NCBI GenBank assembly: GCA_946630035.1
Contig: CAMOYN010000001.1
Span: forward strand, 1-34,818
Length of the DNA: 34,818 nucleotides
Origin: an uncultured Lachnospiraceae bacterium
Lineage (GTDB): Bacteria; Bacillota; Clostridia; Lachnospirales; Lachnospiraceae
Reading direction: 5' to 3'
Shown in pieces: positions 3,162 to 27,498 of the stretch. The position numbers were made by a program, and so were the translations under genes. The notes beneath the pieces were generated by a model, which worked only from the letters and a program-made list of their open reading frames with translations, ran no database searches and was not told where the DNA came from. Within the stretch, counting starts at the first letter, position 1. Each line of letters opens with the position of its first letter.

Positions 3162-3233
3162 TGGAACGTTGTTCGTGCAAATTTGCAGCAGGATCAATAC
3201 AGGATAGTATTGAATCGAAATAAGGAGGATGTT

Positions 3234-4313: not shown

Positions 4314-4328
4314 TAGGAGGGCTGAATA

Positions 4329-4847
4329 ATGAAAAAATGGATAAATAGTAATGCCTTCCGGTCTATAGCAATCTTGGCGTTAGCTGTGATTATGATTGCA
4401 GGAGCATCGATTCGTAGTGCGTGGTCTTATTTTACTACTTATGCGACAGCCAAGGGTGGCTATATAATTCATCTAGGAGATCAAACGGATATTGAAGAAG
4501 ATGTTTCTCAATGGAAAAAGCATATAAAAATCAAAAGTGATGCGGATTCTGATCCAGTATATATTCGCGCAAGAGCTTATTGGGGAGATGATTATACTTG
4601 TCATTATGAAGACTCAAGCGGTAAATGGTCTCCAAGATCGGATGGTTGGTATTATTATAGTGATATTGTTTATGGTGGCGATATTACAGATGAATTAGTG
4701 GTTGTTATAGATAATCATCCAGAAATAGATCAGCCAGGCCCTGATTTTAATGTGATTGTAGTTTATGAGAGCCTTCCTGTAGAATATGATTCAAATGGAA
4801 ATATTGTGGAGCCAGACTGGAATAAAAAAGTAAATGACGAGAAGTGA
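4329..4847 (+). CDS. Small TasA-family-like protein with a SipW-dependent-type signal peptide
   Basis: The RBS is AGGAGGG. The N-terminus MKKWINSNAFRSIAILALAVIMIAGASIRSAWSYFTTYATAKG matches the SipW-cognate signal pattern (hydrophobic core, then G..x.A.(Y/F)F(S/T)D-like). SDPVYIRARAY resembles the xVYVR strand of TasA/CalY-like proteins. The gene is AT-rich compared with its neighbours. Confidence 0.7.
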   Translation: MKKWINSNAFRSIAILALAVIMIAGASIRSAWSYFTTYATAKGGYIIHLGDQTDIEEDVSQWKKHIKIKSDADSDPVYIRARAYWGDDYTCHYEDSSGKWSPRSDGWYYYSDIVYGGDITDELVVVIDNHPEIDQPGPDFNVIVVYESLPVEYDSNGNIVEPDWNKKVNDEK

Positions 4848-4861
4848 GGAGGGAGTTTTAA

Positions 4862-5731
4862 GTGAAAGATTATAAAAAATCGGACAATTTACTACACAGA
4901 GTTCTCCTTTCTCCTATGACAACAATAGGCGCATTCGCGTTGGCGGTAGTTTTACTTGGAATTAGTGGTATTGGTGGAGCTAGAGCGGCGTTACAGTACT
5001 ATTCCGAGAACTATGAATCGCATCTGGAAATGTATGATATTGGTGTTTCTTTGTTGGAGAATGAGGACAGAGTTTCTTTCCGTGATTACGTTCAAAATTC
5101 TGATGGGGTTTGGAGCGAGACAGAAGGAACATTGCTGACACATATGTTAGATGCAATAGGGGAGAATGGAGAACCTGTAAAGGACGAGAATGGTAATATC
5201 GTGACTGAAGAATTAAAAATAGGAGACGATTATAAATACAAGGAAGAATTGTCAATAATGAATTCAGGATCGATCGATCAATATGCGAGAGTATCCATCT
5301 ATAAGTACTGGGAGAAGGATGGCAAAAAACTCACAAATCTGTCTCCGGACCTTATTCATCTAAATTTTGTTAATTGTGATGGAGCGAATGCAGACTGGGC
5401 GATTGATGAGAATGCTTCGACAGATGAACGTACTGTTTTGTATTATCGGCATTTGCTTAAGGCGGGTGAAACATCTTCAATATTTACGGACACTTTATCA
5501 ATTGATGGAATGCTTGCATCAAAGAAAACGGTACATAAATCTGAACCTATCACTGATAAAGATGGTCGTAAGAAGACCGTCATTACCACATCCTATGATT
5601 ACGATGGTGTGAGATTCTGCATCGAAGCAACCGTAGATGCTGTACAGGAGCACAATGTTTCCGATGCCATTCTGTCTGCATGGGGCGGCAAGGTTACGTC
5701 CTCCAATGCGGAACTGAGTCTGATCAAGTAA
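4862..5731 (+). CDS. TasA/camelysin-family protein with a SipW-dependent-type signal peptide
   Basis: The start is GTG, 6-7 nt after GGAGGGAG. The N-terminus reads ...TTIGAFALAVVLLGISGIGGARAALQYYSENYES (compare TasA GGGTWAAFND). LKIGDDYKYKEELSIMNSGSIDQYARV and the C-terminal FCIEATVDAVQEHN...AWGG resemble the TasA/CalY core and its C-terminal strand. Confidence 0.75.
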   Translation: MKDYKKSDNLLHRVLLSPMTTIGAFALAVVLLGISGIGGARAALQYYSENYESHLEMYDIGVSLLENEDRVSFRDYVQNSDGVWSETEGTLLTHMLDAIGENGEPVKDENGNIVTEELKIGDDYKYKEELSIMNSGSIDQYARVSIYKYWEKDGKKLTNLSPDLIHLNFVNCDGANADWAIDENASTDERTVLYYRHLLKAGETSSIFTDTLSIDGMLASKKTVHKSEPITDKDGRKKTVITTSYDYDGVRFCIEATVDAVQEHNVSDAILSAWGGKVTSSNAELSLIK

Positions 5732-5743
5732 GGAGGGACAGCT

Positions 5744-6604
5744 ATGAATATGAAAAAAATTGCGATGCTTTCTATGCTGGCTGCTTCTCTCACAGTGACT
5801 TCTCTGGTGACCGAGCCGGTGAAAGCAGAAAAACTGGGCGGCAAGCAGAACTGGGCTGTTACATTCACCGCGGATAAGAAGATGACGAGTAACTTCAAAT
5901 CCGACAACATGGATGATGTGATCAATGGCATGCAGCCCGGTGATGAAGCTTCCTTTACTCTGAAACTTACCAATGAGTACTCTACCGGCACGGACTGGTA
6001 CATGACCAACAAGGTCCTGAAGTCCATGGAGGATCAGAGTGCCAACAGCGCCACGGCCGGTGGTGCTTATACCTATCACCTCACCTATACGAATCCGGAA
6101 GGCAAGGTCACGGTACTGTTTGATTCCGATACCGTCGGTGGTGAGGAGAGCGAGAACATTATTAAAAATGCAGGAGAAGGTCTTCATGAGGCTACCTCCG
6201 CACTGGAAGATTTCTTCTTCCTGGATGACCTGAAGACCGGAGAGAGCGGCCAGATCGATCTGACGGTGGCTCTGGATGGTGAGACTCAGGGTAACGATTA
6301 CCAGGATACACTGGCAGAACTGCAGATGAATTTCGCGGTAGAGCTTGCCGTGGAAAATGACGAACCGGAAACTACGAAACCTTCTCGTGAGAATCCTACG
6401 GATGAAACCACCAAACCGAATAACCGGGGCGGTGACCGTGAGGTCGTTAAGACCGGCGATGAGACGAACATGAATACCTACTACATCCTCGCCGGTATCA
6501 GCGGAGCTCTTCTTCTCTTCCTTGGTTTCCTGAGCATTTCCATGAGAAAACAGGAAGCGGCGAGAGCCCGTAAGAAGAGCCGGAAGGGAAGGAGGAGAGT
6601 ATGA
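5744..6604 (+). CDS. TasA-like surface protein with an ordinary Sec signal and a non-canonical cell-wall sorting signal (VVKTGD)
   Basis: The RBS is AGGAGGG and the signal peptide ends ...TEPVKA/EK. MQPGDEASFTLKLTNEYS and GETQGNDYQDTLAELQMNFAVE parallel B. subtilis TasA LKPGDKLTKDFQFENNGS and NKYQGNSIKLQFSFEATQ. The C-terminus is REVVKTGDETNMNTYY, then a hydrophobic stretch ILAGISGALLLFLGFLSISM, then a basic tail RKQEAARARKKSRKGRRRV. This is the tripartite architecture of a sortase substrate. Confidence 0.75.
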   Translation: MNMKKIAMLSMLAASLTVTSLVTEPVKAEKLGGKQNWAVTFTADKKMTSNFKSDNMDDVINGMQPGDEASFTLKLTNEYSTGTDWYMTNKVLKSMEDQSANSATAGGAYTYHLTYTNPEGKVTVLFDSDTVGGEESENIIKNAGEGLHEATSALEDFFFLDDLKTGESGQIDLTVALDGETQGNDYQDTLAELQMNFAVELAVENDEPETTKPSRENPTDETTKPNNRGGDREVVKTGDETNMNTYYILAGISGALLLFLGFLSISMRKQEAARARKKSRKGRRRV

Positions 6605-7806
6605 TGAAGAAAGACAGAAAATCATTCCCTTCTCGCTGCCACGCCACCCTCATGGCAGTGGTTATGATGATCACTCTGGTTGCCGGACTGGTGATGCCTT
6701 CGGTAAACACCCGGGCCGCTAAGGATTATACCTATACGGTAAGAGTATTTGCCGGTAAACAGGGAAATATCGGAGGAGCTGCCGTTAAGGAGTTCGACGG
6801 ACTCGCCTATGGAGAAGAGTTCAGTTTCAACCCGATCCAGCAGGCGACGGTGAAAGAGGATAGTAAGTATTATGTCAAAGGTATGCGTGAGAGCGGAAAG
6901 GATAATAATACTTCCCTCGCCATGCAGAACTTCAAAGTAACCAGAGATGTGGACTACGTAATTGCTTACGGACTGAAAGGCAATCTGGTAGAGTATACCG
7001 TACGGTTTGTGGAAGCAGGTACCAATACCCAGCTAGCCGATCCGGAGACGTACTATGGCAATGTAGGAGACAAACCCGTTGTTTCCTATAAATATATTGA
7101 AGGTTACTTCCCCAATGCGAACAACATGACGGGTACACTGAAAGAGGACGCAAGCAAGAACGTGTTTACTTTCCAGTACCAGAAGATCGTAGAGGAAGAG
7201 ACCACTACCACAGCGGAGAGTGAAGCTGAGACGACGACCCGGAGCAGCGGAGATAACAATACTCCTACCCGGAGCTCGCCGAATCCTACCTCGCCGGCAC
7301 CTACCACTCGTGCCAGCAATGAAACCACGCGTGCCAATCAGGAGACCACGACTGCAGCGTCCGGTTCTACAGCGGAGACTACGACTACGACCGCACCGGC
7401 CCAGCCCGAACAGCCGACCCAGCCGACCCAGCCGCCGACAGAGGCCACCTCTGAGGGTGCTGTAGCCGAAGAGAACGAGCTGCAGAATCCTCCGACCGAA
7501 CCGACCCTGCCTTCGTCCCCGGATGAAGTACCGGATCTGATCGATATCGATGAGGGCCCTGTACCTCTGGCTGAATTCTCCGGAGCGTCCGATGAAGGCA
7601 CGGAGACCGGATCCGATTCCTCCAGCCTGAGCCCGAACGACAATGTGAGACCTGGCAGCGGCCTGTCCACTTCCAAGATTATCGTGATCGCAGTCGGAGC
7701 AGCCCTGCTGATCGCACTGGCTGTCATCTTCCTGCTTCGCAGAAGAAGATACGATGACGAAGAGGATGAGGACGACGAAGACGATTTAGACGATTACGAC
7801 GAGTAA
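6601..7806 (+). CDS. MucBP-like surface protein with a Thr/Pro-rich stalk, a C-terminal TM anchor and a poly-acidic cytoplasmic tail
   Basis: The start overlaps the upstream stop (ATGA), and GGAAGGAGGAG lies upstream. It has a signal or anchor sequence. VEYTVRFVEAGTNTQLADPETYYGNVGDKPVVSYKYIEGYFP...NVFTFQYQK is MucBP-like. About 150 aa of T/P/S/E-rich linker follow. The C-terminus is KIIVIAVGAALLIALAVIFLLRRRRYDDEEDEDDEDDLDDYDE, and no LPXTG motif is present. Confidence 0.75.
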   Translation: MMKKDRKSFPSRCHATLMAVVMMITLVAGLVMPSVNTRAAKDYTYTVRVFAGKQGNIGGAAVKEFDGLAYGEEFSFNPIQQATVKEDSKYYVKGMRESGKDNNTSLAMQNFKVTRDVDYVIAYGLKGNLVEYTVRFVEAGTNTQLADPETYYGNVGDKPVVSYKYIEGYFPNANNMTGTLKEDASKNVFTFQYQKIVEEETTTTAESEAETTTRSSGDNNTPTRSSPNPTSPAPTTRASNETTRANQETTTAASGSTAETTTTTAPAQPEQPTQPTQPPTEATSEGAVAEENELQNPPTEPTLPSSPDEVPDLIDIDEGPVPLAEFSGASDEGTETGSDSSSLSPNDNVRPGSGLSTSKIIVIAVGAALLIALAVIFLLRRRRYDDEEDEDDEDDLDDYDE

Positions 7807-7839
7807 AGACAAAGAAAAGCATATAAAGTGCCAATGGTT

Positions 7840-7880
7840 ACAGCGGCCCGGTGATGAAAAGGCCGGGCCGCTGTTCTTTG
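7840..7880 (+). terminator. Stem-loop terminator ending the sortase/TasA-like operon
   Basis: A perfect 12-bp stem pairs ACAGCGGCCCGG (7840-7851) with CCGGGCCGCTGT (7863-7874) around an 11-nt loop. It is followed by TCTTT, a weak T tract. Confidence 0.55.
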
Positions 7881-7972
7881 AGAAGAGAAAACGCCCGTGA
7901 TTCCTGCGAGCCGTGGAACTGACAAATCGTGCGGATTGCAGAGAAAACTAAGGGCTATTGTAAAGGCTATTC

Positions 7973-8001
7973 TTGACAGATCGACTAAAAAAGTGCACAA
8001 T
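7973..8001 (+). promoter_or_regulatory. Candidate sigma-A promoter for sipW
   Basis: TTGACA (7973-7978), a 17-nt spacer, then CACAAT (7996-8001). It lies about 30 nt upstream of the sipW ATG. Confidence 0.4.
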
Positions 8002-8033
8002 AAAAGAAAAAGCATCATGAAAGGGCTTGGAAT

Positions 8034-8549
8034 ATGAGCGACAAAAGGGCTCGCAAAAGGAAAAAAAGAAAAAAAAGATTTGTGCGCTTCATGTGCCGAC
8101 TGACAGGAACACTGATCCTGCTGGCTGTGATTGCGGCCTGCGCCAGTGTGACACTGCCTCGTTATTTTGGATATGAGATCTTCCATGTGGTGAGTGGAAG
8201 TATGGAACCGAAGATTCCGGTAGGAAGTATTGCCTATGTGGAGAAGGTCCCTCCGGAGACGATTGAGAAGGGACAGATTATCGCCTTTTACAGCGGCAAC
8301 TCGGTGATTATTCACCGGGCGGTGAAGAACCAGGTAGTAGAAGGTTATTTCAATACAAAAGGGGATGCCAACGACGGAGAAGACATGAACAATGTGGATT
8401 ACGATCAGATCATAGGAGTGGTCCGATTCCATTATCCTGTCCTGGGGCAGTGGTTCATGGTCTTTACCTCAGAGGTTGGCAAGCTTTACGTGATCTGCTT
8501 TGCGGCCTGCGGGGCACTGTTGAATATCGTAGCAGGCCGTCTTGAATAA
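8034..8549 (+). CDS. sipW: ER/archaeal-type signal peptidase I (S26B), SipW
   Basis: The N-terminus is basic and followed by a TM segment. VVSGSMEPKIPVGSIAYV carries the catalytic Ser, IIHRAV carries the catalytic His, and the TKGDAN motif and a C-terminal TM are present. It is collinear with B. subtilis SipW (VVLSGSMEPEF...THRIV...TKGDNN). Confidence 0.9.
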   Translation: MSDKRARKRKKRKKRFVRFMCRLTGTLILLAVIAACASVTLPRYFGYEIFHVVSGSMEPKIPVGSIAYVEKVPPETIEKGQIIAFYSGNSVIIHRAVKNQVVEGYFNTKGDANDGEDMNNVDYDQIIGVVRFHYPVLGQWFMVFTSEVGKLYVICFAACGALLNIVAGRLE

Positions 8550-8604: not shown

Positions 8605-9495
8605 ATGCAGCAGAAGATGCGGCGGATACTGGCCTGTGGGATGGCATGTATTCTGGGGATCATCGGAGGCAGCATGCGCCCTCAGGCCGCTTATGAAGCG
8701 CCGGCGATGGAGATGGCTGCGTTTCATGAAGGAGCGGCTGAAGGAAATGATTCAGTAAAGATTGATTTGTCACAGACATCGCAGGGGATTGTGGCAGCGA
8801 CCGCCAAGGCCGCAGGAAAAGTGAAGTTTCAGGTGATACTGGGCGAGGCAGCGTATACCTATGACCTGTCCTCCGAAGGGGCACCGGGGGTTTTCCCTCT
8901 GCAGAGCGGAAACGGACACTATTCCTTCCGGGTGCTGGAAAATGTTTCCGGCTCCAAATACGCGATGTTATATCAGACCGAAGCGGACGTACAGATCGAA
9001 GATGAGTTTGCACCCTTTCTGCGGCCCAGTGTCTACACCAATTACTCGGCGGCTTCGGCCTGCGTGACGAAAGCCAGAGAGCTGGCTGCGACGGCAGAGG
9101 ATGCGAATGGCGTGGTACACGCCGTCTTTGACTTTATCTGCAGCAATGTTGTCTATGACCGGGAGAAAGCGGCAACGGTACAGGCCGGTTATGTGCCGAA
9201 ACCGGATGAGACTCTGAGCACCGGCAAGGGGATCTGCTTTGACTATGCGGCTCTGGCAGCGGCGATGCTGCGGAGTCAGGGGATTCCCACCAAGATGATT
9301 TTCGGATATGTGTCACCGAACGATGTCTATCACGCGTGGAACATGTTCTATACGGAGGATACCGGCTGGGTGACTGTGGATTACCAGGTGAGTGAGGACA
9401 GCTGGAACCGGCTGGACCTTACGTTTTCAGCCAACGGAGCCGATGGAAGTTTCATCGGTGATGGCAGCAATTATACAGATGTTTATTATTACTGA
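8605..9495 (+). CDS. Secreted transglutaminase-like (Cys-His-Asp core) domain protein
   Basis: The RBS is GGGGAGGTGAGAG. The signal peptide is MQQKMRRILACGMACILGIIGGSMRPQAA/YE. The transglutaminase core reads GKGICFDYAALAAAMLRSQGIPTKMIFGYV ... YHAWNMFY ... GWVTVD. Confidence 0.85.
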   Translation: MQQKMRRILACGMACILGIIGGSMRPQAAYEAPAMEMAAFHEGAAEGNDSVKIDLSQTSQGIVAATAKAAGKVKFQVILGEAAYTYDLSSEGAPGVFPLQSGNGHYSFRVLENVSGSKYAMLYQTEADVQIEDEFAPFLRPSVYTNYSAASACVTKARELAATAEDANGVVHAVFDFICSNVVYDREKAATVQAGYVPKPDETLSTGKGICFDYAALAAAMLRSQGIPTKMIFGYVSPNDVYHAWNMFYTEDTGWVTVDYQVSEDSWNRLDLTFSANGADGSFIGDGSNYTDVYYY

Positions 9496-9521: not shown

Positions 9522-10571
9522 ATGAGCCAAAGAAAACTGGACAACCTGGGAGTCAGCGCTTTCTGTGAAAGTATGGCTATGATGATTCAGGCCGGCATCC
9601 AGACCGATGAGGCGATCGCCTTGCTGGGACAGAACCACGCCCATGTCACGGGTGGTGTTCTGGAGACGGCCATAGATAAGATGAAAGAGAAGGTGGAGAT
9701 AGGAGAAAGCCTGTCCTCTGCGATGCGCGAGAGTGAAATATTCCCGGAGTATGCTCTGCAGATGATAGCGGCCGGTGAGTCGGCCGGCCGGCTGGAAGAC
9801 GTGCTGTTCCGTCTCTCCCGTTACTATGCGGATCAGAAAACCATCAGTGAGAAGCTGAAAAATGCGGTCACTTATCCGGCCGCCATGCTGGTTCTGATCA
9901 TCGCCGTGCTGGCGGTGATGCTGACGATGGTGCTTCCCGCCTTTTCCGATGTCTATGATAATCTGACAGGAAGCCTGTCTTCTTCCACCTACAGTTACAT
10001 TCACTGGGCCTATGGATTCTGCTGGGTAGCCCTGGTCGTGATGGTGATTCTGGCCGTTCTGCTGATTGGCGGGCTGTGGCTCTGGAACCGCGGTGAGAAA
10101 AAGAAGGTGGAGGGACTGCTCCGGAAAATCCCGGTATGCAGAGACATCCTGGACACGATGGGGATGTTCCGGTTTACTTCCGCTCTGGAGACCTTCCTGG
10201 CCAGCGGCGAGATGCAGGATATCGCGGTGATCGACAGTATTGCCATGACGGACTGTGCTCCCGTGGAAGAGAAACTGAAACGATGCGTTTCCCGCATGGA
10301 AGAGGGACACAGCATTGCCCAGGCCGCCTATGATGAAGAGCTGTTTGAACCGGTGTATGGCCGGATGCTTCTGGCGGGTGAGCGAAGCGGCAGCATGGAG
10401 AATGTGCTGAGCCGTCTGACCGGACTCCTGGAAGAGAACTGCGGAAGCATGGTGGATCATCTGGTAGGTATCGTGGATCCTCTGCTGTCCGGTGTTTTGA
10501 TGGTAACCGTGGGATTATCCCTTCTGAGCGTCATGCTTCCTCTGATCGGTATGATGAACGCTGTGGGGTAA
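9522..10571 (+). CDS. pilC: Type II secretion / type IV pilus platform protein (GspF/PilC family)
   Basis: I prefer the ATG at 9522 (GAGGAAGAGG 5 nt upstream) over the GTG at 9516. Two T2SSF-type repeats are present: GESLSSAMRESEIFPEYALQMIAAGESAGRLEDVL and GHSIAQAAYDEELFEPVYGRMLLAGERSGSMENVL. TM segments lie between them. Confidence 0.9.
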   Translation: MSQRKLDNLGVSAFCESMAMMIQAGIQTDEAIALLGQNHAHVTGGVLETAIDKMKEKVEIGESLSSAMRESEIFPEYALQMIAAGESAGRLEDVLFRLSRYYADQKTISEKLKNAVTYPAAMLVLIIAVLAVMLTMVLPAFSDVYDNLTGSLSSSTYSYIHWAYGFCWVALVVMVILAVLLIGGLWLWNRGEKKKVEGLLRKIPVCRDILDTMGMFRFTSALETFLASGEMQDIAVIDSIAMTDCAPVEEKLKRCVSRMEEGHSIAQAAYDEELFEPVYGRMLLAGERSGSMENVLSRLTGLLEENCGSMVDHLVGIVDPLLSGVLMVTVGLSLLSVMLPLIGMMNAVG

Positions 10572-10656
10572 AAGAGCGCGGCGAAGGAATGAGAATCAGC
10601 GAAGTAACCCGGAGTAACCCCAGGAAACCGATGGATTTCCGGAAACAGGAGGTGCC

Positions 10657-10986
10657 ATGTATTCAGATAAGAAAAAGTTCAGATGGTCATGGCTCCTGGC
10701 AGGCGTATTGCTTGTAGCTCTGTTGGCAGCCGGCGGTGCGTTTTTCCGGATACGGGGAGGCGCGGACATTCATCAGGAGGCGGTTGTCTCTGTGAGGGAA
10801 GCCGTGGAGCGCGCGGCACTTCAATGCTATGTGGTCGAGGGGGCCTATCCCTCGGATCTGGAATATCTGACAGAAAACTATGGACTGGCGGTAAATACGA
10901 GGGATTTCTATATACGTTATGATGCGTTTGCCTCGAACCTTCCGCCCGATGTGAGAGTGGAACCAAAGCCGAAAGAAGAGAGGTGA
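10657..10986 (+). CDS. Pseudopilin-like small membrane protein with no canonical prepilin cleavage motif
   Basis: The RBS is AGGAGGTGCC. A single N-terminal hydrophobic helix (WSWLLAGVLLVALLAAGGAFF) is followed by AALQCYVVEGAYPSDLEYLTENYGL. This resembles the A..Y...G.YP..L..L..GY head-domain motif of GspG/ComGC-type pseudopilins. No G/FTLxE motif is present. Confidence 0.55.
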   Translation: MYSDKKKFRWSWLLAGVLLVALLAAGGAFFRIRGGADIHQEAVVSVREAVERAALQCYVVEGAYPSDLEYLTENYGLAVNTRDFYIRYDAFASNLPPDVRVEPKPKEER

Positions 10987-10993
10987 GTGCGGG

Positions 10994-11470
10994 ATGAGGG
11001 AGCAAAAGGGTTCTCCGCTGGGATTCTATATGCTGGGAATCTGTGCCCTGTTTCTGGCGAGCTTTCTGCTTCTGGTAGTTCTCGGCGCAGGAGTGTACCG
11101 CCGGACTACCGGCAGCCAGAATCAGAACAATCAGACCCGGGCTCTGCTGTCTTATCTTGCTACGGTGGTTCGCGCCAACGATATGAGCGGCGGTATCCAT
11201 GTAAGGGAAGGAGCAGCTCCGGACGGGCAGCTGCTGCTGATCGCGGAAGATGGCAGCGGATATGGTTCCCGGATCTATCCCTACGGGGAATATCTGCTGG
11301 AAGATTATGGCGAAGTGGAAGGGGAGTTTGACCCGGAGCACGCGCTGAAGATCGGCAAGATTCAACAGTTTGAGATCGACTGGGATAAGGATCAGAATTC
11401 TTTATGGATTACAGCCAATGATAATCATCTGCTGTTGCACCTCCGAAGCGAAGGGGGTGTCAGCGAATGA
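10994..11470 (+). CDS. Small membrane protein, possibly DUF4860-like (family recalled from memory, unverified), with a degenerate prepilin-like N-terminus
   Basis: The RBS is GAGAGGTGA. The N-terminus is MREQKGSPLG/FYMLGICALFLASFLLLVVL, with Gly-Phe ahead of the hydrophobic helix and Gly instead of Glu at +5. Its stop overlaps the next start (ATGA). Confidence 0.5.
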   Translation: MREQKGSPLGFYMLGICALFLASFLLLVVLGAGVYRRTTGSQNQNNQTRALLSYLATVVRANDMSGGIHVREGAAPDGQLLLIAEDGSGYGSRIYPYGEYLLEDYGEVEGEFDPEHALKIGKIQQFEIDWDKDQNSLWITANDNHLLLHLRSEGGVSE

Positions 11471-11898
11471 AGAAAAAGGGACATATAACTGCTTTTTACA
11501 TTGAAACACTGGTTATGATCACCGTGGTGATCGGCATTCTGCTGGTACTGTCTCAGATCATGGGGCTTTCCAGAAAGCAGAGTATCCGTGCCAAACGGCT
11601 GACCGAGGCTGTGACCATTGCCCAGAGCATGGCGGAGGCCTCCGTGGGCTGTGGTGACCTGGCATCCTTTCCCCTGGAACTGGGGGAAGCATCTCTGGGA
11701 GAAGAGACCGAAGGAAAAGAAGTTCTCTCCGGGACCTATCTTTGGTCCGATGAGGGAGAGGGAACAACCCTCTATCGGGTTCAGGTGCTGAGAACCCGGA
11801 TGGATGCGATGGCAGAGGACGAGATCTCTGTATTCCCGGCGGAGGGCGAGGAGCCCATCTACACCTTGCATGTGCGGCACAGAGAGGGGGAAACATGA
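11467..11898 (+). CDS. Pseudopilin-like protein with a degenerate class III signal
   Basis: The N-terminus is MKKKGHITAFYIETLVMITVVIGILLVL (compare the canonical KKGFTLIELLVVIAIIGIL). The Glu is displaced by one position and three residues are inserted after the Gly. It overlaps both neighbouring genes by ATGA. Confidence 0.55.
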   Translation: MKKKGHITAFYIETLVMITVVIGILLVLSQIMGLSRKQSIRAKRLTEAVTIAQSMAEASVGCGDLASFPLELGEASLGEETEGKEVLSGTYLWSDEGEGTTLYRVQVLRTRMDAMAEDEISVFPAEGEEPIYTLHVRHREGET

Positions 11899-12299
11899 AT
11901 CAGACGCCTGTTAAACTGGGACCGCTGGCCTTGCTGCTGACGGTGGTCAGCATCTGTCTGACAACATTGGCGATTCTGACCTTCTCAACCGCCCGGGCGG
12001 ACATGAGACTGGCAGAGAAATATGCCGATATGGTTTCCCTGCGATATGAACTGATGAATGAAGGAGAAGATTTCCTTCAAAGTGCCGAAGAGATGGCTGC
12101 GATGAGCATACCGGTTCGTTCCGTACCGGGCACCACGGCGGATGCACAGGGTGTAATTCGTTATGATCTGGAAAAGGATGGCATGCAGCTTACCATCGGT
12201 GTCCGGGAAGAGGCACAAAAGATATCCGTAGTGGATTATCGTATAACGAAGGAATGGGAAGAGGATCTGGATCTTGGAAATCTCTGGCCTGGATTCTGA
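11895..12299 (+). CDS. Small membrane protein (possible minor pseudopilin)
   Basis: The RBS is GAGGGGGAAAC. The N-terminus is MNQTPVKLG/PLALLLTVVSICLTTLAILTF, with a Gly just before a single hydrophobic helix. It is translationally coupled to the upstream gene. Confidence 0.45.
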   Translation: MNQTPVKLGPLALLLTVVSICLTTLAILTFSTARADMRLAEKYADMVSLRYELMNEGEDFLQSAEEMAAMSIPVRSVPGTTADAQGVIRYDLEKDGMQLTIGVREEAQKISVVDYRITKEWEEDLDLGNLWPGF

Positions 12300-12348
12300 T
12301 AATCAGGATTAATCCTGCATGGATGACAGAGAACGGGAGGGGAGTAAA

Positions 12349-13410
12349 ATGAACATCACTGAGATTCTGCAAAAGGCACTGGATGCCGGAGCTGCAGATA
12401 TATTTCTGATCGCCGGTCTGCCGGTTACGTTTAAGTGTAATGGGCACCAGGAAAGGATGCCCGGTGACCGGCTTTTGCCGGACAGTATTCAGACTCTGGT
12501 AGAGGAGATTTATGATGTGAGTCATCGTACCAGAGTCAACCTGGAACAGGGGATCGACGATGATTTCTCCTTTTCGCTGTCTCAGATGGGGCGTTTCCGT
12601 GTCAATGTCTTCCGGCAGAGAGGTTCTCTGGCGGCGGTAATCCGGGTGATTCACTTCGGACTGCCGGATCCCGTGGCACTGGGAATCCCGGAATCGGTTC
12701 TGTCCCTGGCGGACAATAAAAAAGGACTGGTACTGATCACAGGTTCCGCAGGAACCGGAAAATCAACAACCCTGGCCTGTATGATCGACCGGATCAACCG
12801 GCAGAGAGACTGCCACATCATTACGATGGAGGATCCGATCGAATATATTCACCGGCACGATAAAGCGATCGTGACCCAGAGAGAGATATCCATCGATACG
12901 CCGGGCTATCTCGAGTCTCTTCGTTCGGCGCTGAGAGAGAGTCCCGATGTGATTCTTCTGGGGGAGATGAGAGACTATGATACCATTTCTGCCGCGCTGA
13001 CCGCTGCAGAAACCGGTGTGCTTCTCTTCTCGACATTGCACACCAGCAGTGCATCGAATACGATCAACCGTATTCTGGATGTCTTCCCGGCCAACCAGCA
13101 GCAGCAGGTGAAGATTCAGCTGGCGCAGATTCTGAAAGGCGTGGTCTGCCAGCAGCTGGTACCGAAGATTGGCGGAGGACAGACAGCTGTATTTGAAATC
13201 ATGAAGACGACGACCGCCATTCAGAATATGATCCGGGAAGATAAACTGCATCAGCTGGATTCCGCGATGCAGGCCGGAGCCGCCGATGGCATGTGCACCA
13301 TGGATGGCAGCCTCCTCAGGCTGGTGAAAGAGGGAAAGATAACGAAGGAAACCGCCATGATTTCCTGCGTACATTATGAGAATATGAGTAAACGTCTGGG
13401 TGTCAGATGA
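12349..13410 (+). CDS. pilT: PilT-family hexameric secretion ATPase
   Basis: I prefer the ATG at 12349 (GGGAGGGGAG upstream) over the ORF-track start at 12319. Motifs seen: AADIFLIAGLP; GRFRVNVFRQRGSLAAVIRVI; Walker A GSAGTGKST; ITMEDPIEY; Walker B VILLGEMRD; LLFSTLHT; and the PilT-type signature AIQNMIREDKLHQ. At 353 aa it is the size of PilT or ComGA rather than PilB or GspE. Confidence 0.9.
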   Translation: MNITEILQKALDAGAADIFLIAGLPVTFKCNGHQERMPGDRLLPDSIQTLVEEIYDVSHRTRVNLEQGIDDDFSFSLSQMGRFRVNVFRQRGSLAAVIRVIHFGLPDPVALGIPESVLSLADNKKGLVLITGSAGTGKSTTLACMIDRINRQRDCHIITMEDPIEYIHRHDKAIVTQREISIDTPGYLESLRSALRESPDVILLGEMRDYDTISAALTAAETGVLLFSTLHTSSASNTINRILDVFPANQQQQVKIQLAQILKGVVCQQLVPKIGGGQTAVFEIMKTTTAIQNMIREDKLHQLDSAMQAGAADGMCTMDGSLLRLVKEGKITKETAMISCVHYENMSKRLGVR

Positions 13411-13442
13411 CGTAAATAGTGGACGAGAGATTACAGAGAAAA

Positions 13443-14693
13443 ATGGAAATGGATAAGAATTTAAACGAACAGGATATTTTGTATGTAAAAATGTTTGGAA
13501 ACTTCTCCATGACATGGCATGGAAAAGCGCTGGCAGGCGAGGCTAAATCCCTGGAGTCCCAGTTCATTCTACTGATGGAAATTCTGCTGCATAATCGTGA
13601 AAAAGGAGTCACACGAGATCAACTGGAAAGAGCTCTGTTTGAAAACCGGGACATCGATGATGTGCACCATGCGCTGAGAACCGTTATCTATAATGCAAGG
13701 AAAAAGCTGAAAAAATATGGGTTGCCCGATGTGAATTACATTGTTTCCGAGAAAGGGGTCTACACCTGGACGAAGGAGATTCCGGTGGTGGAGGATGCCA
13801 CGGAGATGGAAAAAATGATGGCTCAGGCGGAGGAAGAGACCGATCCGGCAAAGAAGAAAGCATTGTATCTGGATGCATGTCATTGCTATACCGGCGAGTT
13901 CCTCTCCAGTCAGATCGGGATTGTATGGATTGCAAGGGAAGCCAGAAAATACAGAGAATTGTTTTTTGACTGCGTGAATAAGACGGTGGAACAGCTGCGG
14001 GTTTCCCATGACTATTTCCAGATGGAGTCGCTGGGGTATTATGCGTCGAAACTGCATCCGCTGGAGAACTGGGAAATCGTGACCATGGAAGCATTGACGG
14101 CCATGGGACGCTATGATGATGCGGTAAAGCTGTACGAGGATACCGTGGATCTCTACTTCCGGGAGGAAGGACTGAAGCCTTCGGGACGTCTGATGGAGAT
14201 GCTGGATGAACTGGGAAGCAGTATGGAACATCAGCATGCCGTCCTGGATGACATTCAGGGAGACCTGGCCGAAGAGGGAGAGCCCGGCGGTGGGTATGCC
14301 GTTTCCTACCCGGTGTTCCAGGGAATCTATCGTATGATTGAACGGCTGCTGGAACGCGGCGGCCAGTCGGTATTTCTGATGCTGTGCACGGTGGTGGACA
14401 GTAAAGGGAATCCAATGAGAGAAGGGAGCGCTCTGGAGGAGCTGTCCCAGCGTCTGGGAGAAGCGATCCACAATTCCGTGCGGCACAGCGATACGATGAC
14501 CCGCTATGGGAGAGGACAGTATCTGGTTCTTCTGGTTAATACCACTCTGGAAGACTGTAAGATTGTTCAGAAGAGAATTAATCTGCATTTTATTAAAGGA
14601 CGTCAAAGAACGGGAATCAAGTATCACGTGAATTCAGTAATCTGCGAGCCGGATATTATATTCCACTCAAAAGGACCGGAGGACAGAGAATAA
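13443..14693 (+). CDS. SARP-like winged-helix / BTAD regulator fused to a degenerate GGDEF domain with an intact RxxD I-site
   Basis: The start is uncertain (GTG 13419, ATG 13443 or ATG 13449). The N-terminus reads ILYVKMFGNFSMTWHGKAL...QFILLMEILLHNREKGVTRDQLERALF...ALRTVIYNARKKL, which is SARP/OmpR-like. ALYLDACHCYTGEFLS is a BTAD-like string. The C-terminus reads VFLMLCTVVDSKG...LGEAIHNSVRHSDTMTRYGRGQYLVLLVN. It aligns with PleD RAIDLPCRYGGEEFVVIM: RHSD corresponds to the RxxD I-site and GRGQY replaces GGEEF. Confidence 0.75.
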   Translation: MEMDKNLNEQDILYVKMFGNFSMTWHGKALAGEAKSLESQFILLMEILLHNREKGVTRDQLERALFENRDIDDVHHALRTVIYNARKKLKKYGLPDVNYIVSEKGVYTWTKEIPVVEDATEMEKMMAQAEEETDPAKKKALYLDACHCYTGEFLSSQIGIVWIAREARKYRELFFDCVNKTVEQLRVSHDYFQMESLGYYASKLHPLENWEIVTMEALTAMGRYDDAVKLYEDTVDLYFREEGLKPSGRLMEMLDELGSSMEHQHAVLDDIQGDLAEEGEPGGGYAVSYPVFQGIYRMIERLLERGGQSVFLMLCTVVDSKGNPMREGSALEELSQRLGEAIHNSVRHSDTMTRYGRGQYLVLLVNTTLEDCKIVQKRINLHFIKGRQRTGIKYHVNSVICEPDIIFHSKGPEDRE

Positions 14694-15172
14694 TGGCAAA
14701 TTCACAATGCTATATCGGGACTCCCAATGGCGTAGTTTTGTGTGTTGACCGGAAATCAGGCGACGGCCTGGATGGACATTTCTGGCATGGATACAGGGAA
14801 GATGCCGTGAAATTTTCAAGACTGTATGAATTTGTACAGGAGCTGGAAAAATTCTTTGATGAGATCCGTTTTCCGTACCGCGGTACGACGATGCGTACGT
14901 TCGGAGTGGCAGCAGTTCCCAGACAGAGACAGGAGAAAACGAGGGTTATGGCAGACGAGAAACTACTGGAAAAGAGAGGCGACCTGGGGACTTTCATCGT
15001 TCGGGTGCAGCACCGTCAGAACAGCAGCTGGCAGGGACGTCTGACCTGGATTGAAGAAGACAAAACGGTATATTTTCGCTCCATCTGGGAGATGATAAAG
15101 CTGGTGGAGAGCGCTCTGGATACCGTGGATTCGGAAGAATTGATGGAGAATGTTTCCTGGTCGGAAGAGTGA
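14693..15172 (+). CDS. Hypothetical cytoplasmic protein built from two copies of a domain of about 45 aa
   Basis: The start overlaps the upstream stop (TAATG), and GGAGG lies 10 nt upstream. The two halves align: VVLCVDRKSGDGLDGHFWHGYREDAVKFSRLYEFVQELEKF and FIVRVQHRQNSSWQGRLTWIEEDKTVYFRSIWEMIKLVESA. I do not recognise the family. Confidence 0.6.
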   Translation: MANSQCYIGTPNGVVLCVDRKSGDGLDGHFWHGYREDAVKFSRLYEFVQELEKFFDEIRFPYRGTTMRTFGVAAVPRQRQEKTRVMADEKLLEKRGDLGTFIVRVQHRQNSSWQGRLTWIEEDKTVYFRSIWEMIKLVESALDTVDSEELMENVSWSEE

Positions 15173-16890
15173 TGGAGATGGATAAAAAACTGCGGCATTA
15201 CAACGATATCCGTCGTGTTGTGATGGTTGTGGATGATGAGCCGATCAACCAGGAGATGCTGGGATTTATCCTGAAAAAGGATTATGAAGTCGTGCTGGCA
15301 TCGAATGGCGAAGAGGCACTGGAGAAGATCCGGAGCCGTAAAAGGACTCTTTCCATGATACTCCTGGATTTGAATATGCCGGTTATGGATGGCTATCGTC
15401 TGCTGGAAATACTCCGGGAAGATGAAGAACTGAAGTACATTCCTGTGATTGTACTGACGGCAGAGGATGGGGCAGAAGTCCGGTGTCTGGAACTGGGCGC
15501 AGTGGATTTTATCAAAAAGCCTTACAACGTTCCGAGTGTGATACTGGCCAGGGTCCGGCGGGCGATTGAACTGTCCGAAGATAACCGGATTATACAGGAT
15601 GCAGAACAGGACGAACTGACCGGATTATACAACCGGGTATTCTTCTTTGAGTATGCGTCACAGATGGATCCTTTTCAGGAAAAAGGCGAGACGGACGCCA
15701 TTGTGATCAATATTGATCATTTTCATCTGGTCAATGAATTATACGGCAGAATCTATGGGGATCAGGTCCTGCAAGCCATTGCCGACGGAATCCGGGAATT
15801 CATGGATGAGAACCGGGGGATTGCCTGCCGGTGTGACGGGGATATGTTCTATATCTATTGCCCTCACCAGAAGGAACCTGCTGCGATTCTGGATGTGATC
15901 CGACGCCATCTGGAAAAACTGCCCGATGATTCGCGGATTCGCCTGCGGATGGGAGTCTATGCGAAGGCGGCACCGGATGAGCTGATGGAACGACGATTTG
16001 AACGCGCAAAACTGGCCTGCAGTACGGTGCGCGGCAAATACATAGAACCGGTTGCCTGCTATGATGTTTCCATGTCGGAGACGGAAGTTCTCTCAGAGCG
16101 ACTGGTCAATGATCTGAAAAGAGGTCTGGATGAGAAACAGTTTAAGGTCTGGTTCCAGCCGAAATACGCTATTCAGGGAGAACAGCCCCAGCTTTCCAGT
16201 GCGGAGGCTCTGATCCGGTGGGATCATCCTGAATTCGGAATGATCAGTCCGAGTGTATTTATCCCTCTTTTTGAGAATAATGGGCTGGTGCAGAAACTGG
16301 ATCATTATGTCTGGGCGGAAGCAGGAAGATGGATTGCTTCCTGGAAAAGTAAATATGGATTTACGGTACCGGTTTCCGTGAATATATCCCGGGTGGACAT
16401 GTATGACCCCCGGCTGAAGGAAAAGATACTGACGATATTAGAAGAGAATCATCTGACTCCGGAGGATTATCTCCTGGAAATCACGGAATCGGCTTATTCC
16501 GATGATCTGGAACAGCTGATTCATATCGTGGAAGAACTGCGTGTTCTGGGATTTATGATCGAGATGGATGATTTCGGAGCCGGATATTCAACCTTGAATA
16601 TGCTCACGGTTCTTCCGGTGGATGTTCTGAAGCTGGATATGCAGTTTGTGAAGAATGCAACCAGCGACAGAAAGAATTACCGGCTGGTAGAACTGATGAA
16701 AGATATTGCCAGATTCCTGGAGGTGCCGATTGTGGCAGAGGGTGTCGAGACGAAGGAGCAGTGTGAGATACTGCAGAAGATCGGATTCGACCTGGTGCAG
16801 GGATATTATTTCAGCCCGCCCCTGCCTCCGGAGGAATTTGAAAAGCTGATAAAAAAGGAAGTCGATAGGAAAGGAGCAGAGATATGTTGA
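15172..16890 (+). CDS. Response-regulator receiver + degenerate GGDEF + EAL domain protein (predicted c-di-GMP phosphodiesterase)
   Basis: Candidate starts are GTG 15169, ATG 15172 and ATG 15178, overlapping the upstream stop. REC domain: VVMVVDDEP...MILLDLNMPVMDG...VIVLTA. GGDEF fold with the A-site changed to RCDGDMF. EAL domain: QPKY...AEALIRW, NISRVD, EITES, DDFGAGYS, LKLD, VAEGVET, QGYYF. The catalytic set looks complete. Confidence 0.9.
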   Translation: MEMDKKLRHYNDIRRVVMVVDDEPINQEMLGFILKKDYEVVLASNGEEALEKIRSRKRTLSMILLDLNMPVMDGYRLLEILREDEELKYIPVIVLTAEDGAEVRCLELGAVDFIKKPYNVPSVILARVRRAIELSEDNRIIQDAEQDELTGLYNRVFFFEYASQMDPFQEKGETDAIVINIDHFHLVNELYGRIYGDQVLQAIADGIREFMDENRGIACRCDGDMFYIYCPHQKEPAAILDVIRRHLEKLPDDSRIRLRMGVYAKAAPDELMERRFERAKLACSTVRGKYIEPVACYDVSMSETEVLSERLVNDLKRGLDEKQFKVWFQPKYAIQGEQPQLSSAEALIRWDHPEFGMISPSVFIPLFENNGLVQKLDHYVWAEAGRWIASWKSKYGFTVPVSVNISRVDMYDPRLKEKILTILEENHLTPEDYLLEITESAYSDDLEQLIHIVEELRVLGFMIEMDDFGAGYSTLNMLTVLPVDVLKLDMQFVKNATSDRKNYRLVELMKDIARFLEVPIVAEGVETKEQCEILQKIGFDLVQGYYFSPPLPPEEFEKLIKKEVDRKGAEIC

Positions 16891-17225
16891 CAATAGAAGC
16901 TTTGCGTGAATACGGCGCAAATGTAGACGAAGGCCTTGCCAGGTGCTTTAACAACGCGGATTTCTACCTGAAACTGGTAGGAATGCTGGGCAATGAAAAA
17001 GGCTTTGACAAACTGGAGGAAGCGCTGGAAAAGAACGACCTGGATGCTGCATTTGAGGCGGCTCATGCATTGAAGGGTGTACTGGGAAATCTCTCGCTCA
17101 CACCGGCTTATACACAGGTCAGTGAAATCACAGAATTGCTTCGCAGCCGCACCAATATGGACTATAGTGAACGGTTGGCGGGTATCATGGAGCAGCAGAA
17201 GATCCTGAAGGAGTTGTTGAATTAA
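16884..17225 (+). CDS. Histidine phosphotransfer (HPt) domain protein
   Basis: AAGGAG lies 7 nt upstream, and the gene overlaps the EAL gene stop. The HPt signature is AAHALKGVLGNLSL. The product is a four-helix-sized protein of 113 aa. Confidence 0.8.
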   Translation: MLTIEALREYGANVDEGLARCFNNADFYLKLVGMLGNEKGFDKLEEALEKNDLDAAFEAAHALKGVLGNLSLTPAYTQVSEITELLRSRTNMDYSERLAGIMEQQKILKELLN

Positions 17226-17812
17226 TGAAGAAGCGCAGAGCAGTTCCTTTTGTGCCGGAGGTCGCAGCTCTGGAAAGGGAACTGCAGAAGGAATATCAAA
17301 ACAAAAAACGTTTTCGCACTTTCCGGCGTATGGCTTTTACTCTGGTGACAGTGTCAGCGGTGGCGATTCTGGTCGCTATTCTATGGATGCCGGTGCTGCG
17401 GATTTATGGCAGCTCCATGGCACCGACATTGTTTGAGGGTGATATTGTTGTGTCCGTAAAGGAGCAGAACATGAAACCGGGAGATATCATTGCCTTCTAT
17501 TATAACAATGAGATCCTGGTGAAACGGCTGGTCGGAGTTGCCGGGGACTGGATTGATATCGATGAGGAAGGGAATGTATATCTGAATGGCACTCTTCTGG
17601 ATGAGCCGTATGTGCAGGAAAAGGCTTTTGGTGAGACGAACATTCAGCTGCCTTATCAGGTACCAGAGAATCGTGTCTTTGTGCTGGGAGACCATCGCAG
17701 CGTCTCCATTGATTCGAGAAACACCGCGGTAGGCTGCGTGGCGGCAGAGCAGATCGTCGGAAAGATTACCATGAGGCTCTGGCCGATCACAGAAATGTCG
17801 ATTGTCAAGTAA
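17225..17812 (+). CDS. lepB: Type I signal peptidase (S26A, LepB/SipS type), paralogue 1
   Basis: The start overlaps the HPt stop (TAATG). After the TM segment come YGSSMAPTL (Ser box), ILVKRLVGVAGD (Lys box) and VLGDHRSVSIDSR. Confidence 0.9.
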   Translation: MKKRRAVPFVPEVAALERELQKEYQNKKRFRTFRRMAFTLVTVSAVAILVAILWMPVLRIYGSSMAPTLFEGDIVVSVKEQNMKPGDIIAFYYNNEILVKRLVGVAGDWIDIDEEGNVYLNGTLLDEPYVQEKAFGETNIQLPYQVPENRVFVLGDHRSVSIDSRNTAVGCVAAEQIVGKITMRLWPITEMSIVK

Positions 17813-18201: not shown

Positions 18202-18810
18202 ATGAGTAAAGAAAAAACGAATAGGACGGATGAACAACAGCACCATAATGAACCGGATATTGCTACCCTGGAATCGGAGCTGGAAAGAGAACGCTATAAG
18301 AGCCGCTACCGAAGCGCCCTTCAGAGCACGATCTTTACCTTGATCACAGTAGCGGCCGCAGCGGTACTGGTTGCGACGCTGTGGATGCCGGTGCTGCAGA
18401 TCTATGGTTCCTCCATGAACCCGGGATTGGCAGCGGGGGATATCGTCGTCTGCCGGAAAGCGGAGAAGGTCAAACGGGGCGATATCATTGCTTTCTATTT
18501 TAATAACAAGATACTGGTGAAGCGCGTGATCGGTACCAGCGGCGATCAGGTGTCTATTTCCGATGAAGGCGTAGTGACTGTTAACGGAGAGACACTGCAG
18601 GAATCCTATATAACAGAGCAGTCTCTGGGACAGTGCAATGTTACCTTCCCTGTGGTTGTGCCCCAGGGCAAGGTCTTTGTTGTGGGAGATAACCGGGGAA
18701 CGTCGGTGGATTCCAGAAACAGCGCCGTCGGCTGCGTAGACACAGAGCAGATGATCGGAAAACTCCTGGTCCGTGTCTGGCCGATCGATAATCTCAGCAT
18801 CGTAAAATAG
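18202..18810 (+). CDS. lepB: Type I signal peptidase (S26A), paralogue 2
   Basis: YGSSMNPGL, ILVKRVIGTSGD and VVGDNRGTSVDSR are present. The N-terminal region (LESELERERYKSRYRS...LWMPVLQIYGSSM) is collinear with paralogue 1 (LERELQKEYQNKKRFRT...LWMPVLRIYGSSM). Confidence 0.9.
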   Translation: MSKEKTNRTDEQQHHNEPDIATLESELERERYKSRYRSALQSTIFTLITVAAAAVLVATLWMPVLQIYGSSMNPGLAAGDIVVCRKAEKVKRGDIIAFYFNNKILVKRVIGTSGDQVSISDEGVVTVNGETLQESYITEQSLGQCNVTFPVVVPQGKVFVVGDNRGTSVDSRNSAVGCVDTEQMIGKLLVRVWPIDNLSIVK

Positions 18811-21961: not shown

Positions 21962-22073
21962 GATAAATGTCATATGACTTCGTGGATTTTCAAAAATCAA
22001 AGCTGCAGCTACTATTTATTTTACGGAAAACTACGAGGTGCGTGAAATATTATTTAACGGAGGTAAGTGAGAA

Positions 22074-23330: not shown

Positions 23331-23373
23331 ATTGAAGTAATTCCCCAACAGTACGTGACTGCGGGGATAGAAA

Positions 23374-23410
23374 GCAGGGGCGTGCAAAAACGTACGTCCC
23401 TGCATTTTTG
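23374..23410 (+). terminator. Imperfect intra-operon stem-loop after the binding-protein gene (possible attenuator)
   Basis: GCAGGGGCGTGCA pairs with CGTACGTCCCTGC (two mismatches) and is followed by ATTTTTG. Confidence 0.4.
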
Positions 23411-23431
23411 TGAGGAGGTGAAAGCGTTTTT

Positions 23432-24313: not shown

Positions 24314-24316
24314 ATT

Positions 24317-26464: not shown

Positions 26465-26519
26465 TAACAGAGGCGTTTCTGATTTTGCTATATTTTTTAA
26501 TTCAAGGAGATATAAAACT

Positions 26520-27386: not shown

Positions 27387-27462
27387 ACTAAAATACAAGG
27401 GCAAACGGAAAATGCGTTTTGCTCCTGAAATTACAGAATCTGACCCTGCGTGATGTGGGAAC

Positions 27463-27498
27463 GGAAGAGAGGGGGAGAGATTGTTCTTCCCCTTTTTT
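27463..27498 (+). terminator. Weak stem-loop with a T tract after the aldolase gene
   Basis: GGAAGA pairs with TCTTCC around a 16-nt loop, followed by CCTTTTTT. Confidence 0.45.

Follow-up and report, generated by a model that had tools for sequence, protein, structure and literature searches.

A conserved seven-gene cassette of gut and rumen Clostridia that may encode a divergent, minimal type IV filament-like machine

We analysed a stretch of 34,818 nucleotides (the window) from an uncultured Lachnospiraceae bacterium (assembly GCA_946630035.1, contig CAMOYN010000001.1) and found that it encodes a cassette of seven genes: a transglutaminase-like enzyme, a PilC-type platform protein, four small membrane proteins, here called K, L, M and N, and a PilT-type ATPase. 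We consider it rather more probable than the alternatives taken together that the cassette is a divergent, minimal type IV filament-like machine, a pseudopilus machine that is probably autonomous. In the accepted scheme, machines of this kind consist of an extension ATPase, a platform, a prepilin peptidase and pilins with class III signals, PilT being an optional retraction motor (PMC6668835, PMC6916266). The cassette conflicts with this parts list, as it contains just a platform and PilT together with pilin-like proteins that motif-based detection misses. As far as an incomplete literature search shows, the cassette is undescribed: no paper on DUF4860, the family of protein L, was found, and one broader search gave only general work on type IV pili.

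The conserved cassette and its recognizable parts

The seven genes lie on the forward strand. All except the first are taken from the list of open reading frames (ORFs):

8605-9495, forward strand: transglutaminase-like gene, the first gene of the conserved core, recognized by its Transglut_core match
9516/9522-10571, forward strand: PilC-type gene, 349-351 aa (349 from the start at 9522)
10657-10986, forward strand: gene for protein K, 109 aa
10994-11470, forward strand: gene for protein L (DUF4860), 158 aa
11467-11898, forward strand: gene for protein M, 143 aa
11895-12299, forward strand: gene for protein N, 134 aa
12319/12349-13410, forward strand: PilT-type ATPase gene, 353 aa from the start at 12349, which is the start kept in the family alignment

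An earlier annotation of this DNA, made without database searches and referred to below as the sequence-only reading, had described the last six of these genes as a tightly coupled unit. The ORF list agrees with the sizes that it gave, with the gaps of 85, 7 and 49 nt and with the two 4-nt ATGA overlaps, at 11467-11470 and 11895-11898. The six genes do belong together, but the boundary of the unit was drawn too narrowly, because the transglutaminase-like gene precedes them; a BTAD-type regulator and its partner, which follow them, were also overlooked.

The order transglutaminase-PilC-K-L-M-N-PilT is common to 85 loci seeded with DUF4860 and 80 loci seeded with distant K homologues, about 165 in all. 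The former derive from a scan of one genome per GTDB species (80 loci; the neighbourhood counts given here use 85 DUF4860-seeded genome loci), and the latter were kept from at least 591 confirmed places in a metagenome scan. About 20 kb around the cassette were read per locus, that is, 1.39 Mb and 0.72 Mb for the two sets and 2.1 Mb together. The transglutaminase-like gene stands immediately 5′ of the PilC gene in 79 of the 85 DUF4860-seeded loci and 49 of the 80 K-seeded ones, and upstream of it in nearly all loci whose contig extends far enough; the median gap between the two genes across loci is 15 nt. The overlap between the L and M genes is retained in 53 of 70 loci and that between M and N in 49 of 63. 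With a single gene order shared by about 165 independent loci and the overlaps kept, the gene set is not a product of chance. The conserved unit therefore comprises seven genes, the transglutaminase-like gene included, in Clostridia of the gut and rumen. A variant arrangement was seen in a few distant cassettes (L142, L145 and L146), where the transglutaminase-like gene is found on the opposite strand, downstream of PilT; linkage is retained there and operon position is not.

Carriers in the genome scan include Oscillospiraceae, Lachnospiraceae, Erysipelotrichaceae, Eubacterium, Butyricicoccus, Lentihominibacter and others, amounting to roughly 86 GTDB species; four of the carrier records are not labelled as metagenome-assembled genomes, namely Neglectibacter sp. 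X58 (QWEO01), bacterium D16-50 (RAZA01), bacterium D16-76 (QZEE01) and Oscillospiraceae bacterium B35_35_AM_H (CAJTCS01). The first DUF4860 homologues to be retrieved came from Oscillospiraceae-type metagenome bins, whose contigs carry the same neighbourhood. The metagenome occurrences are from human gut, mouse gut and rumen samples; the sample behind the window is a sheep rumen metagenome. An Rfam scan of the window detected no riboswitch or other RNA, and a scan for promoters and terminators gave no signal above the shuffled background.

Profile searches that the sequence-only reading had proposed place three of the proteins in known families. The protein encoded at 12349-13410 scores 406 bits on TIGR01420, the model of the PilT/PilU retraction ATPase family (cut-off 319); the platform protein matches T2SSF (PF00482) with an expectation value (E) of 5e-39, over two stretches; and L scores 43.6 bits on the DUF4860 model PF16152, for which the gathering threshold is 25. 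The ATPase aligns over its full length (residues 8-349) with Aquifex aeolicus PilT (2ewv) at 347 bits and E 9e-103, compared with about 79 bits for PilB. The Walker A sequence GSAGTGKST and the AIQNMIRE motif are conserved in the ATPases of 75 loci, which bears out the earlier call of a PilT-type ATPase as the last gene. No CxxC pair, corresponding to the PilB-type Zn-binding Cys motif, is visible in the sequence. The ATPase is thus a true member of the PilT family and the only secretion-type ATPase of the locus.

The platform protein belongs to the GspF/PilC family, although no subfamily model reaches its cut-off: the NCBIfam scores are 171 bits for GspF, 137 for PilC and 114 for ComGB, all below the respective thresholds. 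It aligns to residues 80-416 of Myxococcus xanthus PilC and represents a short form that lacks approximately the first 55-80 residues of canonical GspF and PilC.

The product of 8605-9495 is a member of the transglutaminase-like cysteine enzymes (PF01841), which have a papain fold, with matches to Transglut_core at E 4e-23 and to DUF553 at E 6e-12. An alignment of 76 sequences shows conservation of the motifs GKGICFDYA, YHAWN and RLDLT, which carry the Cys-His-Asp triad; of its residues, Cys and His do not vary and the Asp of RLDLT is conserved. The nearest solved relatives, both distant, are the putative cysteine protease 3isr and the protein-glutamine gamma-glutamyltransferase 6g49. A basic N-terminus followed by a hydrophobic segment, either a signal or an anchor, predicts that the catalytic domain is extracytoplasmic. 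We also considered this protein as a substitute leader peptidase and ruled it out, since a domain predicted to lie outside the cell could not remove pilin leaders, which are cytoplasmic.

We then looked for the remaining components of a type IV filament machine by searching the ORFs of at least 45 aa from all loci with E. coli GspE, GspF and GspO. Across the 165 loci (2.1 Mb), there is exactly one GspE-like ORF per locus, namely the PilT, and one GspF-like copy per locus; neither a GspO-like prepilin peptidase nor a GspL/M-like ORF was detected in them. Within the window, a phmmer search with E. coli GspO returned no prepilin peptidase and no canonical prepilin (G-FTLxE) was seen by eye, while a regular-expression search over all locus ORFs gave three spurious matches. 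The type IVa set of PilB, PilM/PilN/PilO, prepilin peptidase and major pilin is accordingly missing from the loci; in none of them does the cassette have a linked gene for PilB, PilD, PilM/N/O or a canonical pilin. The sequence-only reading had pictured a stripped-down filament system in which PilC and non-canonical pilin-like proteins occur without PilB, PilD or a prepilin, and this description holds for the window as well as for the related loci. In B. subtilis, comC is unlinked to comG. MSH loci are also devoid of a prepilin peptidase (PMC6668835), and the lack of a linked peptidase is not unusual in itself.

The four small proteins

Type IV pilins are defined by a class III signal peptide, in which a short hydrophilic leader, with Gly (or Ala/Ser) as its last residue, is followed by about 21 hydrophobic residues with Glu or Asp at position +5 (PMC6916266). 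PilFind formulates this as [GAS]-x4-[DE] followed by 14 uncharged residues (PMC3244431). A motif of this type is failed by three of the four small-protein families and by the window's own M, so that none of the four proteins of the window carries it: K, L and N have no acidic residue at the required place and M has its Glu one position early. Nevertheless, several lines of evidence indicate that K, L, M and N are four diverged pilin-like single-pass membrane proteins. The case is best for M and L and poorest for K, with N, for which it is reasonable, in between.

M has the most pilin-like N-terminus of the four, with a short basic leader, the motif T-[A/S/G]-F-Y-x-E and a conserved hydrophobic helix. 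The Glu is invariant, being present in 73 of 73 close relatives and in 48 of the 48 residues aligned at that column, and it occupies position +4 in the window's clade. Among the close relatives, 66 of 71 have a shorter variant of the signal, [GAS]-x3-E plus 14 uncharged residues, and none passes PilFind. In distant relatives from the same cassette, the canonical [GAS]-x4-[DE] motif is satisfied in 32 of 50, an example of such an N-terminus being MNRKHPSG-VFMMEMIAVVFFF. Judging from these sequences, M descends from a family with a standard prepilin signal, and the standard prepilin-peptidase motif of the distant homologues points to an ordinary PilD acting in trans. The Gly that the sequence-only reading had singled out in M (KKKG-H) turned out not to be conserved (Gly in 9 of 73 sequences); what is kept is the T-[A/S/G]-F-Y-x-E motif. 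In an hhalign comparison with E. coli GspI, the N-terminal 52 residues of M align with Glu on Glu (P 3.5e-4). Family scans gave weak sub-threshold matches to ComGG in 9 of 57 members and to PilV likewise in 9 of 57. A homologue search with M returned six sequences.

N has a basic leader, the motif P-x-[KR]-L-G-P and a conserved hydrophobic helix, and it is devoid of the Glu. The Gly before the helix is found in 69 of 70 and 36 of 37 sequences. A Gly without Glu is the pattern typical of minor pilins of the GspK/PilX type. M and N are distant paralogues (hhalign probability 82%, E 1e-5), and N is taken as pilin-like through this relation to M. Two members of the N family match PilX_N weakly.

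All 31 homologues of L carry a precomputed PF16152 match. An AlphaFold2 model of L, built from an 18-sequence alignment, has a predicted local distance difference test (pLDDT) score of 87 and shows a helix (residues 9-61) followed by an eight-stranded sheet that resembles the beta head of GspJ. By probability and template modelling (TM) score, the best Foldseek matches in PDB are GspJ pseudopilins, namely EpsJ (2ret_H; 0.77 and 0.46), XcpW (5bw0_C) and the XcpGHIJK model, at E values that are not significant. L has no Glu near its N-terminus. In distant L members the helix begins with L-F-T-x-L-L.

According to the alignments, K starts with an invariant M-Y-S-D, followed by a basic stretch, by a membrane helix that varies in sequence and by a highly conserved head of 65 aa (QCYVVEGxYPxDLxYLxxxYG...FASNxPP). 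Its AlphaFold2 model (60 sequences, pLDDT 82) has a helix at residues 7-61, a second helix at 68-75 and a beta hairpin of two strands. Foldseek places a full-length pilin, Thermus thermophilus PilA4, first by probability (0.57, TM 0.45) and Neisseria pilins 13th and 18th, none of these matches being significant. The models of L and K thus share the lollipop layout of a 53-55-residue N-terminal helix and a small beta head, with Foldseek E values of 0.4-0.9 and TM scores of about 0.45. No Pfam or NCBIfam family matches K above threshold and there is no Pfam model for its family; weak sub-threshold matches to the ComGC model occur in 7 of 58 members. Searched against 1.84 billion representative proteins, the K profile retrieved 1163 clusters at 50% identity (E <= 0.001). 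Across the family (10657-10986, P0158-P0307), the only invariant residues are one Cys, one Gly, two Pro and one Tyr, and many members start with M-Y-x-[D/E]. The lone invariant Cys lies in the extracytoplasmic domain of a protein that is encoded beside a Cys-His-Asp enzyme.

Profiles of K, M and N built as hidden Markov models (HMMs) found nothing relevant among PDB sequences, in which the N-terminal helix is missing from most solved pilins. When the K, M and N families were scanned against Pfam and NCBIfam, the matches were scattered, sub-threshold and hints at most, and hhalign detected no signal between K, L or N and E. coli GspG-M.

Proposed mechanism, rival explanations and known systems

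If the cassette is a type IV filament-like machine, L, M and N, with their conserved hydrophobic helices, would assemble on the platform into a short pseudopilus, similarly to the minor-pilin tip complex of type II secretion. K, which combines a variable anchor with a conserved head and the M-Y-S-D tag, could be an adaptor subunit or a membrane-tethered partner. As the sole motor, the PilT hexamer would rotate the platform, so that the pseudopilus stub moves out and in. Cleavage of M and N is probably the work of a prepilin peptidase whose gene lies in another part of the genome. Outside the membrane, the exported transglutaminase-like enzyme might open or cross-link the thick cell wall, or act on the pseudopilin heads. 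Expression would be controlled by the BTAD-type regulator and the cyclic di-GMP (c-di-GMP) and phosphorelay proteins encoded downstream, the presence of which suggests a role in surface attachment or aggregation. Precedents for the unusual use of the motor exist: PilT is required for pilus extension in the MSHA system of Vibrio cholerae (PMC9815625), and in Tad pili one ATPase serves both extension and retraction (discussed in PMC6668835).

We also entertain, as a possible but doubtful extension of this interpretation, that the cassette constitutes an autonomous new class. Such a machine would run on a PilT-type ATPase alone, with no extension ATPase or dedicated prepilin peptidase, and its short pseudopilus would be made of four degenerate pilin-like proteins, of which at least some would remain unprocessed. 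The machine would depend on an exported enzyme of the transglutaminase fold that cuts or cross-links the wall or the subunits, and it would be a widespread, unrecognized surface organelle of gut and rumen Clostridia.

Several observations weigh against reading the cassette as a filament-like machine. PilT is classically a disassembly motor. No major filament subunit is obvious, and none of K, L, M and N resembles one; PilB, PilD and a major pilin may lie outside the roughly 20 kb read per locus and work with the cassette. The variable membrane helix of K and the lack of any cleavage-type motif in its alignments make it ill suited as a filament core subunit, while in L the Gly before the helix is 65% conserved. 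Matches of K, M and N to pilin families in HMM searches are all far under threshold, and for N the family scan gave essentially no pilin-family match at all. No Foldseek match is significant (best E about 0.4-0.9, TM about 0.45), and among the four small proteins the AlphaFold2 models cover L and K. Finally, everything said here of the cassette derives from its genes, sequence comparison and predicted structures.

The chief competing explanation makes the cassette an accessory to an ordinary type IVa pilus encoded at several loci, to which it would supply a second platform, special minor pilins and the retraction ATPase of the genome, whereas PilB, PilD, PilMNO and the major pilin, encoded elsewhere, do the assembly. 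Much would fit: the ATPase is an orthodox PilT, which is normally dispensable for assembly (PMC6916266), the locus has no major pilin, distant M homologues bear standard prepilin motifs, and a prepilin peptidase is often encoded apart from the systems that it serves, which may be several (PMC6668835). However, the cassette has its own platform and a rigid seven-gene order in about 165 loci of several families, and PilB, PilM/N/O or a pilin gene is not adjacent to it in any of them. Moreover, the prepilin motif is missing from three of the small proteins and the transglutaminase-like gene has no counterpart in type IVa systems. On balance, we regard this explanation as unlikely, though it deserves to be taken seriously. 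We find it more improbable still that the small proteins are unprocessed, membrane-anchored assembly or stator proteins, analogous to PilN, PilO or GspM, and that PilT and PilC power something else, for example export or insertion of the transglutaminase-like enzyme. The heads of PilN and PilO are ferredoxin-like, whereas the modelled heads here combine a pilin-type helix with a beta sheet; M has a pilin-type Glu, and its relatives a full prepilin motif; and L, M and N show the strong conservation of their hydrophobic helices that packing of helix against helix would lead one to expect. The variable anchor and invariant cytoplasmic M-Y-S-D tag of K, reminiscent of proteins that dock cytoplasmic partners, would suit a stator better, as would the absence of the prepilin motif from K, L and N and the lack of significance of the Foldseek matches.

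Two further explanations are harder to sustain. The sequence-only reading had suggested piston-like export of the adjacent fibre proteins, which depend on sortase and SipW. In its favour, the window and some 20 related genomes encode BsaA-like secreted proteins, a SipW-type peptidase and a class C sortase immediately upstream of the core, on its strand. This association is confined to one lineage, as the module flanks the core in about 20 of the 85 genome loci and 1-2 of the 80 metagenome loci. Elsewhere the core adjoins unrelated genes, which in the loci sampled include housekeeping genes, and the fibre proteins bear ordinary Sec-type signals. Because the fibre genes accompany the core in only about a quarter of genome loci, dedicated fibre export is unlikely as its general function, and we consider the piston very improbable. 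A lineage-specific functional link between the fibre module and the core is possible. The least probable explanation, to which we give almost no credence, is a divergent competence (ComG-type) pseudopilus for DNA uptake. Gene number and sizes do resemble comGA-GG, and ComGC and ComGG models give weak matches. On the other hand, neither equivalog model recognizes its counterpart: the ATPase scores 124 bits on ComGA (cut-off 300) yet passes the PilT model, and the platform scores 114 bits on ComGB (cut-off 240). In addition, the ATPase gene is last in the operon rather than first, and no ComEA/ComEC-type gene was found among the neighbours scanned against Pfam and NCBIfam.

Returning to the filament-like machine, we compared it with known systems. 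The cassette would work most like a Com-type or type II secretion-type pseudopilus, but its motor is a PilT, its subunits are degenerate and it has a transglutaminase-like protein as obligatory partner. With the ComG system of Bacillota it shares a monoderm host, a single compact operon, one ATPase, a short platform (about 345-350 aa), several pilin-like proteins of 100-160 aa and a peptidase outside the operon; it differs in that the ATPase is of the PilT family and encoded last, the canonical G-FTLxE is lacking and the transglutaminase-like gene is obligatory. Resemblance to GspF and the GspH-I-J-K tip of type II secretion systems is weak and not statistically significant: the L model is closest to GspJ (EpsJ/XcpW), the M N-terminus aligns with that of GspI, and N, with Gly and no Glu, is like GspK. 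A short, non-extending pseudopilus, as in these systems, would be the likeliest product. Unlike them, the locus lacks a GspE-type ATPase, a GspG-type major subunit, GspL/M/C and a secretin, the host is monoderm and the heads are much smaller than that of GspK.

The type IVa pili of Clostridia and Streptococcus sanguinis (PMC6916266) have a platform and PilT of the same families and the same host lineage, but the extension ATPase, PilM/N/O, peptidase and canonical pilins are absent from the cassette locus, where PilT is the only motor. The MSHA system of V. cholerae (PMC9815625; PMC6668835) likewise has a locus without a prepilin peptidase and needs PilT for both extension and retraction; in contrast to the cassette, it possesses an extension ATPase of its own, MshE, and its major pilin is canonical. 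In Tad/Flp systems (PMC6668835), one ATPase may also drive extension and retraction, but that ATPase is of the TadA/CpaF family and is accompanied by two platform proteins and a dedicated peptidase, TadV. The ATPase of the cassette scores 42 bits on the TadA-family model (cut-off 373) and there is a single platform gene.

Should the machine be autonomous, a PilT-type motor could assemble as well as retract, which bears on how motor direction is set. The scale of the family (more than 1100 K clusters and at least 591 metagenome places) implies a sizeable, uncharacterized surface system of abundant commensals. DUF4860 would gain a context and three further, unnamed protein families a first description. 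The obligatory transglutaminase-like partner, as recognized from its sequence, hints at a link between pilus-type machines and the cell-wall chemistry of monoderms.

Neighbouring genes

The following genes flank the cassette in the window:

2241-8549, upstream of the core, same strand: sortase/SipW fibre module
8034-8549: S26 peptidase of the SipW/archaeal type
13419-14693, forward strand: regulator with winged-helix and BTAD domains and a GGDEF-like C-terminus (Pfam matches)
14693-15172, forward strand: protein Q, 159 aa, which always accompanies the BTAD regulator and is present in about 38 loci
15169-16890, forward strand: REC-GGDEF-EAL protein (domain matches)
16884-17225, forward strand: Hpt protein (domain match), the start of which overlaps the REC-GGDEF-EAL gene
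17225-17812 and 18202-18810: two LepB-type signal peptidase I paralogues (S26), 390 nt apart with an 82-aa ORF between them

The BTAD regulator is found 3′ of PilT in about 41 of the 85 loci, and it is inverted and upstream in L075, L108 and L130. The start of the Q gene overlaps the stop codon of the regulator gene by one base, and Q has no match in Pfam, NCBIfam or PDB. The two proteins may form a c-di-GMP-responsive activator with a partner protein. The pair encoding the REC-GGDEF-EAL and Hpt proteins adjoins the core in about 30 loci, and its domain composition suggests a phosphorelay input to c-di-GMP turnover.

The sequence-only reading had counted three signal peptidases of other classes near the cassette, and the three S26 peptidases listed above account for them. 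Its proposal that a different peptidase processes the small proteins found no support: the S26 genes are not conserved neighbours of the core and occur mainly in the lineage with the sortase module, and distant M proteins have the standard prepilin-peptidase motif. Inspection of the alignments by eye also revealed no site of the Ala-x-Ala type after the conserved helices, and we rejected the S26 peptidases as processing enzymes.

Besides the class C sortase (277 bits) and the SipW-type peptidase, the fibre module encodes a DUF5979 protein and two secreted proteins with weak matches to the BsaA/SipW-dependent families. Two more of its products are a protein that ends in VKTGD, a transmembrane segment and a basic tail, as in a sortase-type sorting signal, and a Thr/Pro-rich protein with a transmembrane segment and a poly-acidic tail. 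Relatives with the module usually have a second sortase-like gene, which the window does not. The genes upstream of the core vary between lineages; in two loci sampled from other lineages, they include an ATP synthase operon, a histidine phosphatase/acetyltransferase and proteins without a Pfam match. Further upstream in the window, the ORF at 44-1873 (609 aa) has no family match and a composition resembling low complexity, and it is probably not a real gene; at the corresponding position, the relatives L003 and L004 have a gene for a SpaA-type LPXTG pilin. Downstream, a sugar-utilization cluster at 22050-30167, unrelated to the cassette, encodes ABC permeases, an ADP-dependent kinase family protein, a class II aldolase, an RpiR regulator, a D-lyxose isomerase and an aldose 1-epimerase.

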